Virus record (IMG/VR): IMGVR_UViG_2667527976_000007 | Reading direction: 5' to 3' (one strand) | Length of the DNA stretch: 34,515 nt | From: a virus | Taxonomy: Duplodnaviria; Heunggongvirae; Uroviricota; Caudoviricetes | Shown: positions 1-1,063 of the stretch, in pieces | Position numbering within the stretch: position 1 is the stretch's first letter | Layout: each line of letters starts with the position of its first letter | Made by a program: the position numbers and the translations under genes | Notes under the pieces: model-generated | What the model was told of the DNA's origin: nothing | The model's database searches: none | Seen by the model: only the letters and a program-made list of their open reading frames with translations

Positions 1-510
1 ATGTCTTCGGATGCTGATGCTCACAAAGTGGGCTTAATCCCCGTCACCCTGATGGTGTCGGGGAATATTATGGGGTCAGGTGTTTTTCTGTTACCTGCAA
101 ACCTGGCCTCCACTGGCGGGATTGCTATTTATGGATGGTTGGTGACGATTATCGGTGCGCTGGGGCTCTCGATGGTATACGCCAAAATGTCGTTCCTCGA
201 CCCAAGTCCTGGTGGTTCTTACGCTTACGCCCGCCGCTGCTTTGGCCCGTTTCTCGGTTATCAAACCAACGTCCTCTACTGGCTGGCCTGCTGGATCGGC
301 AATATCGCCATGGTGGTCATTGGCGTAGGATATTTAAGTTACTTCTTCCCGATTCTGAAAGATCCATTGGTATTAACCATCACCTGCGTCGTGGTGCTGT
401 GGATCTTCGTCCTGCTGAACATTGTCGGTCCGAAAATGATCACCCGCGTACAGGCCGTTGCTACCGTGCTGGCGCTGATCCCCATCGTCGGGATTGCCGT
501 ATTTGATTAG
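1..510 (+). pseudogene. adiC: adiC (arginine:agmatine antiporter) 5' fragment, disrupted after ~codon 168 by prophage insertion
   Basis: Translation 1..510 matches the N-terminus of E. coli AdiC as I recall it, through '...[12 protein letters not shown]', then diverges ('D' + stop). Full AdiC is ~445 aa, so about 60% of the gene is missing downstream. Confidence 0.85.
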
Positions 511-673
511 ACCTGGTTCCGAGATGAAATGACAGGGAATAAGTGAGATATTTATGGGAAGAACTGGGTCAAAATGGGAAGAGACTAGGAGGAATATGCA
601 ATAACCTTACAGTATGTGAAAATCAGACCGGCCCGAAAAAAAAACAGAACTCGCGCCAGCCTGATTGCAGATA

Positions 674-1063
674 TTACTCTTTTTTCTCCGTATCTGCATC
701 GGGTTCATCAGCAAATAGCTTGCCCTGCATCCGATCCAGTTCTTCTTTTCTTACCCGCTTAACCACGCTGTAGACCCACTGAAGCGAAACACCAAATTTG
801 CGGGCCAGTTCGTGGTGGTTGCGTCCGTTAAACTCCCTGAAGATTTCCCGGTCGCGCTGACTGACCTTCCATACCATGCCCATCGGGAAATAAACGTTTT
901 GCCCGCCCCAGACCTGCATCATTCGGTTCGCGACGGCCTGACCAATCTGGTCGGCAACTTCGGGCTCAATATCAATAATCTCGCGAACGGTCTCAGAGGT
1001 ATGCTGTGCCAGTTCCACCAGGAGTTCCGGCCCCTTACTTCGAAACTGATTCAGGTCGCTCAT
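674..1063 (-). CDS. Mor/C-family transcriptional activator (middle/late gene activator)
   Basis: 129 aa, size and C-terminal HTH-like region typical of Mu Mor/C proteins; last gene of the early operon, directly after the GemA-like gene as in Mu. Confidence 0.65.
   Translation of the reverse strand: MSDLNQFRSKGPELLVELAQHTSETVREIIDIEPEVADQIGQAVANRMMQVWGGQNVYFPMGMVWKVSQRDREIFREFNGRNHHELARKFGVSLQWVYSVVKRVRKEELDRMQGKLFADEPDADTEKKE

Follow-up and report, generated by a model that had tools for sequence, protein, structure and literature searches.

In the transposable phage Mu, the two ends are held together in a transpososome and the pac site is situated inside the left end, between L1 and L2; both Mu and Tn7 possess two ends with unequal numbers and arrangements of transposase sites. 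Mu and D3112-like phages have been described to carry three sites per end (review, PMC4378225). For BcepMu and phiE255, 23-bp imperfect terminal repeats and a left-end pac site have been reported (PMC2920897), and the BcepMu relatives share TG...CA termini and a Tn552-related transposase of the rve type (PMC2628397). In the B3-like phages the early operon is inverted (PMC5977238). The present analysis deals with a window of 34,515 nt, i.e. the whole stretch of DNA presented here, which opens with the start codon of the host gene adiC and runs into a prophage of this group.

The insertion in adiC and the phage terminus

From position 504 on, the sequence belongs to the left end of a transposable prophage of the BcepMu/B3 type and not of the Mu type. 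Very probably, positions 504-673 represent the left end (attL side) of a prophage of about 37 kb that was inserted into adiC by DDE transposition. The genes most relevant to this assignment are the following:

674-1063, minus strand: mor, late-transcription activator and terminal gene of the inverted early operon (Pfam Mor, E = 1e-43)
4516-5721, minus strand: AAA+ transposition partner in an ExeA / MuB-like role (Pfam AAA_22, E = 4e-20; ExeA family in EC958)
5693-7462, minus strand: DDE transposase of the rve family, 589 aa (Pfam rve; tblastn)
15056-15601, plus strand: Mu gp27-like protein, presumed small terminase (Pfam Phage_Mu_Gp27, E = 1e-56)

The early genes on the minus strand comprise mor, gemA, gam and the genes for the AAA_22 ATPase, the rve-family DDE transposase, a DUF3102 protein and small HTH proteins, and the late genes on the plus strand include those for Mu gp27, portal, F and tail sheath. 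The Pfam domains found were rve, AAA_22, Mor, GemA, Gam, Portal_Mu, Mu_F and Gp27; for the transposase, Pfam returned rve only and no Mu-specific transposase domain. In tblastn comparisons the transposase was 98.8% identical to that of PhiKM, 68.5% to that of BcepMu and 56.8% to that of B3, the last two values spanning 98-100% of the length. The locus shares with the BcepMu/B3 type the rve-family transposase with its adjacent AAA+ partner, the inverted early operon with mor as terminal gene reading toward the left end, the 5'-TG...CA-3' termini (the right terminus being read in five sister prophages) and imperfect repeats of about 23 bp at both ends, of which L1 is disturbed here by seven extra bases. 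The features of Mu proper, a 5-bp duplication and the gene order c-ner-A-B at the left end, were not found, and mor rather than the repressor gene occupies the left tip. A Mu-like phage truncated at mor by a deletion was also considered and ruled out, since mor is gene 1 in BcepMu and B3 and the terminus is common to 19 insertions.

At the host side, two features define the junction:

1-503, plus strand: adiC 5' fragment, codons 1-168; the fused frame gains Asp and stops inside the phage end
498-503, no strand assigned: predicted left copy of the target-site duplication, CGTATT, deduced from the 6 bp seen in 5/5 sister insertions

The adiC fragment is identical to that of sister assemblies of the same insertion and matches intact adiC of locus L002 at 501 of 503 nt. 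An earlier note on this DNA, made from the letters alone, had placed a prophage-host junction within adiC, and this is borne out, as the sequence common to the 19 insertion sites follows directly after adiC nt 503. Together with these sites, the alignment to intact adiC, which the note had proposed as a check, fixed the junction at 503|504. The true host/phage boundary is thus 503|504 and the prophage begins with the TG at 504-505. The note had further stated that identity to adiC is lost after codon ~168 and that the frame stops at 508-510. Codon and stop are correct, since the frame ends with ...GTA TTT GAT TAG and the TAG occupies 508-510, yet identity to intact adiC is unbroken through nt 505 and an in-register similarity reaches nt 529 (match 300-529, 97.0%), because the seven extra bases in the phage end equal adiC bases. 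Between the adiC stop and the stop of mor, a gap of 163 bp (511-673) holds no plausible gene, which agrees with the non-coding stretch of ~165 bp given before.

The terminus was fixed at TGATTAGACTTGAGATAAATGAC by 19 independent insertion sites, namely nine differently placed copies in complete genomes, nine in contigs reached via the NA37 cargo protein, and the adiC insertion. All 19 begin with TGATTAGACTTGAGATAAATGACAGGG directly after unrelated host DNA, and every boundary read starts with TGATTAGACTTGAGATAAATGACAGGGAATAAG right after such DNA. The target duplication was 6 bp long in 5/5 sister prophages with both ends read (GAAGAA, CCTTCA, CTCAGG, GGTGGT and CTTGCT), instead of the 5 bp that had been expected. 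In these five sisters both ends start with TGAT when read inward, so that the right terminus shows the same TG as the left terminus at 504-505. Insertion is near-random, with at least 19 different sites and a short duplication. Collectively, the TG termini, the at least 19 different sites and the target-site duplications support the proposal of a transposable phage. In the open-access literature searched, a scope without the original BcepMu and B3 papers, no mention was found of the 6-bp duplication or of the GGGA array described below.

By comparison with these sisters, CGTATT (498-503) is the predicted target duplication of the adiC insertion. Its right junction would read ...GCGCATCA|CGTATTTGGCTGG, and in the source strain the right phage end is predicted as ...GGCGCATCA|CGTATTTGGCTGGTTCTGG, with the CGTATT duplication next and adiC resuming at nt 504; neither the right end nor the 3' adiC remnant is contained in the window. 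A sequence scan with the predicted right junction CGCGGCGCATCACGTATTTGGCTGG gave no match in viral_contigs or metagenome_contigs, a looser pattern of the left junction gave none in viral_contigs, and none of the complete RefSeq genomes of E. coli contains the adiC junction. A C-terminal AdiC fragment of the expected extent (residues 179-445, 267 aa) is present on 91 contigs, and the truncated AdiC protein led to 11 contigs with the same insertion. AdiC is the arginine/agmatine antiporter needed for arginine-dependent acid resistance. Because of this role, the protein, of whose 445 residues only the first 168 remain, should be inactive and arginine-dependent acid resistance should be lost in the strain. 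Literature searches on adiC with a Mu-like prophage and on PhiKM returned nothing useful.

Terminal repeats and seven extra bases in L1

The phage end starts with two repeats:

504-533, plus strand: L1, terminal 23-bp repeat, canonically TGATTAGACTTGAGATAAATGAC, starting with the conserved TG at 504-505 and extended to 30 bp in the window
534-556, plus strand: L2, second 23-bp repeat, with the core GAGATATTT at 545-553 (core spacing 23 nt in 41/44 relatives)

The cores GAGATAAAT of L1 and GAGATATTT of L2 are present at both phage ends; in the window the L1 core reads GAGAT[G]AAAT (521-530). Inverted copies of cores of the type GAGATAWWT are present at the right end, and such cores are common to the E. 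coli phage, BcepMu, B3 and phiSHP3. The shared bases are concentrated in these two cores, G(A/C)GATAAAT at end positions 12-20 and G(A/C)GATAWWT at 35-43. A transposase scan of species-representative genomes yielded 80 loci, 72 of them with a mor homologue downstream. The core pair was seen in 44 of these loci when relaxed spacing was allowed, the distance from core to core being 23 nt in 41 of the 44 and the TG preceding core 1 by exactly 11 nt in 40 of the 44. Position, conservation and analogy make L1 and L2 the probable binding sites of the rve-family transposase. The earlier suggestion that the ATGGGAAGA pair resembles an array of transposase sites appears doubtful, as the inverted copies at the right end are GAGATAWWT repeats and not ATGGGAAGA.

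The L1 copy in the window carries seven extra bases, CTGG at 513-516, CC at 519-520 and G at 526, the placement being partly ambiguous. Relative to every other copy, the window reads TGATTAGAC[CTGG]TT[CC]GAGAT[G]AAATGAC inside L1. All seven bases equal the base of intact adiC at the same coordinate, for which the random expectation is ~6e-5. The extended form was found only in the 40,057-nt draft contig ena:ERZ26120531:IMG_VR_283, the source of the window, and the two are identical over the 10,510 nt checked. The canonical end is present for the same insertion in GCA_000397445.1, GCA_000397225.1 and the Logan assemblies SRR653724, SRR653737, SRR653739 and SRR653745, and in a comparison of 3,510 nt these seven bases are all that sets GCA_000397445.1 apart from the window, the number of mismatches being 0. 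An optimal global alignment of the canonical junction to intact adiC, combined with the rule to take the phage base or else the adiC base, reproduces positions 504-533 exactly, an outcome obtained under 7/180 scoring schemes.

Because six other assemblies of the same insertion are devoid of the seven bases, these are probably an artefact of a reference-assisted assembly or consensus step. In this regard, the contig AOQB01000082.1 of GCA_000397225.1 (locus L122, 2045-4344) displays adiA split into two ORFs (314 + 466 aa) and several small indel differences from ena:ERZ26120531:IMG_VR_283, which suggests an assembly error there and indel errors in the assembly series. Chimerism in a de Bruijn graph was ruled out as a source, since the alternating segments are at most 9 nt long.

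The opposite reading takes the seven bases as real, that is as a mutation private to the strain and templated by adiC, for example by a template switch with subsequent patchy repair. It can point to the deposited contig in which the sequence sits and to the in-register match of 7/7 bases, at ~6e-5 if random; moreover, the adiC 3' flank that would have served as template adjoins the other phage end, and the transpososome brings both ends together. It is nevertheless unlikely. Four of the six canonical assemblies were made straight from reads, and no other difference from the window was seen over 3.5 kb; the variant 34-mer TGATTAGACCTGGTTCCGAGATGAAATGACAGGG had no exact match in any of the three collections scanned (viral_contigs, genome_contigs and metagenome_contigs). 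A real event would need four template switches in 26 nt, with all phage bases kept and only insertions made, replication of a heteroduplex yields one parental type or the other and not a mosaic, and the pattern is the signature of a consensus in which deletions are filled with reference bases. Quite unlikely, too, is the more specific proposal that the seven bases are a scar left when the host flanks, brought together at the synapsed prophage ends, underwent a template switch or heteroduplex repair. If the bases were real, the GAGATA core, of which the sixth base is A in all left ends aligned, would be interrupted, the distance from the TG to the core would grow from 11 to 17 nt and the end should be disabled; a real scar would shift the cleavage site by 6-7 bp and lock the prophage in place.

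The GGGA array and the hairpin behind mor

Between L2 and mor, three further features were recognized:

554-592, plus strand: GGGA-type array of four elements ~10 bp apart, i.e. GGGA at 556-559, GGGT at 566-569, GGGA at 576-579 and a degenerate TAGGAGG at 586-592 (left ends; GGG position peaks)
597-610, plus strand: block TGCAATAACCTTAC, family consensus TG.AAA....TTgC (information content, 24 left ends)
621-666, minus strand: hairpin directly behind the mor stop, which may terminate the early operon (16-nt arms; RNA fold)

The 9-mer ATGGGAAGA had been noticed twice, at 554-562 and 574-582 and 20 bp apart from start to start, which is confirmed, and no further copy exists in the 34.5-kb window. 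Taken alone, the repeat is weak evidence, because 6 of 100 shuffled versions of the whole window also held at least two copies of a given 9-mer; what gives it weight is its conservation. The two copies are unchanged in 18/19 other insertion sites, the exception being L009 with ATGGGAAGT in the first copy, and their GGGA cores are conserved across genera. The proposed period of ~20 bp, or two helical turns, has to be revised, since the ATGGGAAGA copies are elements 1 and 3 (canonical end positions 44-52 and 64-72) of four phased GGGA elements with a true period of ~10 bp. Among 24 non-redundant left ends from beta- and gamma-proteobacteria (at most 85% identity), GGG starts at end positions 46, 56, 66 and 76 in 17, 10, 10 and 13 cases, compared to a background of 1.4 per position (binomial p 2e-16 to 3e-7). 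The consensus of these left ends (n=24) reads TGAg.gGGagTGAGATAAAtc.aaggGga...GcGAGATAAaT.cGGGAt...gcGGGa.g....GGGA.....tGGGA.gG.aa.TG.AAAagtgTTgC. A repeat arising by chance, or inherited neutrally and without function, would fit the 6/100 shuffles that hold at least two copies of a given 9-mer and the near-identity by descent of most E. coli copies. It is, however, highly improbable, as the GGGA cores keep positions 46, 56, 66 and 76 though flanks and transposases diverged (51-57% identity).

The six right ends compared, which represent four sequence types, display at most one position-matched element of the GGGA type. Within 100 nt of the right terminus, GGG is absent from the E. coli phage, B3, PM105 and JD18. 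The array is essentially left-end-specific, although not absolutely, because one element near 46 is present at the right ends of BcepMu (GGGA at 46) and phiSHP3 (GGGG at 47-48, and again at 85-86). We infer that it may serve as the element telling the left end from the right one. The left-end specificity, the fixed distance from the terminus and the fact that BcepMu-type phages package from a left-end pac site, together with the location of the Mu pac just inside L1, led us to the tentative suggestion that the small terminase recognizes the array as the region where packaging is initiated (pac), and the gp27-like protein is a candidate reader of such a site. With similar caution, the array might be what serves all BcepMu/B3 phages as pac or as left-end identity element, which had not been defined before.

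Alternatives to packaging are extra sites for the transposase or an accessory protein, for which the probability is low, or a regulatory role. In the transposase version, which appears doubtful, the array or the ATGGGAAGA pair would offer additional L3-like sites that help to assemble the left-end transpososome. The fixed position beside L2, the helical phasing and the conservation together with the transposase across genera are in line with such a role, as are the overlap of the first ATGGGAAGA copy with the last 3 nt of L2 and the differences in site number and arrangement between the ends of Mu and Tn7. However, the GGGA motif does not resemble the GAGATAWWT cores common to both ends, the right ends of the E. 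coli phage, B3, PM105 and JD18 do not carry it, and its 10-bp period differs from the 23-bp period of L1/L2. The block TGCAATAACCTTAC and its right-end counterpart may represent a third site common to both ends. A TTGCA-N-TTGC-like block was also observed at right ends, with AAAGAAATTGCA...TTGC at ~70-95 in L011, L033, L035 and L119.

The stop of mor lies at 674-676 on the minus strand, and mor is 170 nt away from the terminus. The minus-strand RNA of 621-666 is predicted to form a hairpin that has 16 base pairs and an internal bulge (-25.7 kcal/mol, z = -3.8), which starts 8 nt past the mor stop and bears a U9 in its loop, corresponding to A9 on the plus strand (636-644). It is plausible that this hairpin is the terminator of the early (mor) operon; its U-tail has only ~4 U and a simple terminator scan did not call it. 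The A9 tract had been reported at about 639-647; the tract exists, its position is 3 nt further left, and it is the loop of the hairpin just after mor. The length of the A-run differs among copies, with A7, A8, A9 or AACAAAAA at the site corresponding to 636-644 in L003-L031. As a side observation, the homopolymer in the hairpin loop is prone to slippage and shows no sign of a length constraint. A scan of 400-1100 for promoter and terminator consensus sequences gave matches at background level only. On the minus strand of 593-620, a weak sigma-70-like TTCACA-16-CATATT (9/12) faces the terminus and adiC; sigma-70-like matches were no commoner than in shuffles.

Taken together, the following working of the left end is proposed from the arrangement of its elements. 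The phage was very probably inserted by DDE transposition between adiC nt 503 and 504, and the inward order is the TG, L1+L2, four GGGA elements, the TGCAA...TTAC block and the hairpin with its A9/T9 loop. The transposase is assumed to bind L1, L2 and their right-end counterparts, to cleave next to TG/CA and to join the ends to target DNA at positions staggered by 6 bp. The GGGA elements, spaced by one helical turn and essentially confined to the left end, would mark left versus right, and the gp27-like small terminase might read them as pac. The hairpin may terminate the early (mor) operon.

Distribution, cargo and comparison with known systems

The phage part from nt 521 on was found by megablast in 641 of 5,426 complete E. 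coli genomes, and left-end matches range from 533 to 641 of these 5,426 depending on the query. Most of the 641 genomes are ST131 strains with the phage at the start of ycaL. The prophage in adiC is a new insertion of this known element (ST131 ycaL prophage/PhiKM).

The cargo block in the window encodes an NA37-family protein, a KwaA-like protein and a Dam-like methylase. It extends from 9484 to 12459 between a repressor-like gene and the lysis genes and has a low GC content (41-42%). The NA37-family protein comprises 335 aa (Pfam E = 1e-80) and the second protein 401 aa, with a weak match to KwaA of the Kiwa defence (E = 8e-5, residues 262-394); the pair is followed by the convergent Dam-like methyltransferase gene. 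The NA37/KwaA-like pair, listed in 4,504 blocks of the contig index, is possibly a Kiwa-like defence module; the EC958 copy has different cargo. Left-end cargo exists in the group as well, because in the phage variant of L027 (OZ039743.1, 435-1182) mor is separated from the left end by an additional gene of 210 aa; the terminal sequence of this variant gave no match in the pattern search for the canonical end. Finally, L011 4414-7712 (EC958) and L017-L021 are consistent with an invertible host-range segment, and the source contig of the window ends within the prophage, upstream of the region matching L011 4414-7712.

With respect to the host, this is an ordinary event, in which a transposable prophage that is very common in E. 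coli has entered a new site in a small clonal strain group. Its value lies in a nucleotide-level map of a BcepMu/B3-type left end, including terminus, L1/L2, 6-bp duplication and a phased GGGA array as pac candidate, and in a cautionary example of a deposited contig junction that resembles a reference-filled consensus.

The closest known relative is the E. coli ST131 prophage at the start of ycaL (EC958, JJ1886), which is essentially the same phage, with 99.8% identity over the end and mor region. Escherichia phage PhiKM (PQ738613) is 96.4% identical over the early region, and the terminal 70 bp are identical in the ST131 prophage and PhiKM. Unlike the prophage studied here, the ST131 copy sits in ycaL and not in adiC, has a different cargo block and bears no extra bases in L1.

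Compared to Burkholderia phage BcepMu (Bcepmuvirus) and phiE255, the phage has in common an rve-type DDE transposase (68.5% identical to that of BcepMu), an AAA+ partner and an inverted early operon. With BcepMu it shares mor as gene 1 on the minus strand at the left end, termini starting with TG, left-end GGGA elements at ~56 and 66, Mu-like head and tail genes, and 23-bp repeats with G(A/C)GATAWWT cores at 12-20 and 35-43 of both ends (PMC2920897, PMC2628397). BcepMu differs in its host and cargo and shows no detectable DNA similarity outside the motifs; it is also without the left-end GGGA at 46 and has one at 46 on the right end. Pseudomonas phage B3 (Beetrevirus) resembles the phage in its transposase (56.8% identical), the inverted early operon (PMC5977238), mor as gene 1 on the minus strand and a left end that aligns motif for motif, including TGGGAnGnACTGGGnCA, whereas its tail is of the siphovirus type and its cores are slightly different (GAGAAATAC, GCGATAAAG). 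Mu, finally, is also transposable, has TG...CA ends with several transposase sites each, and possesses Mor, GemA and Gam as well as portal, F and gp27 proteins of the kind found here. However, it uses MuA instead of the rve/Tn552-like enzyme, generates a 5-bp duplication compared to 6 bp here, and its early genes are directed away from the left end, where c and ner occupy the tip.
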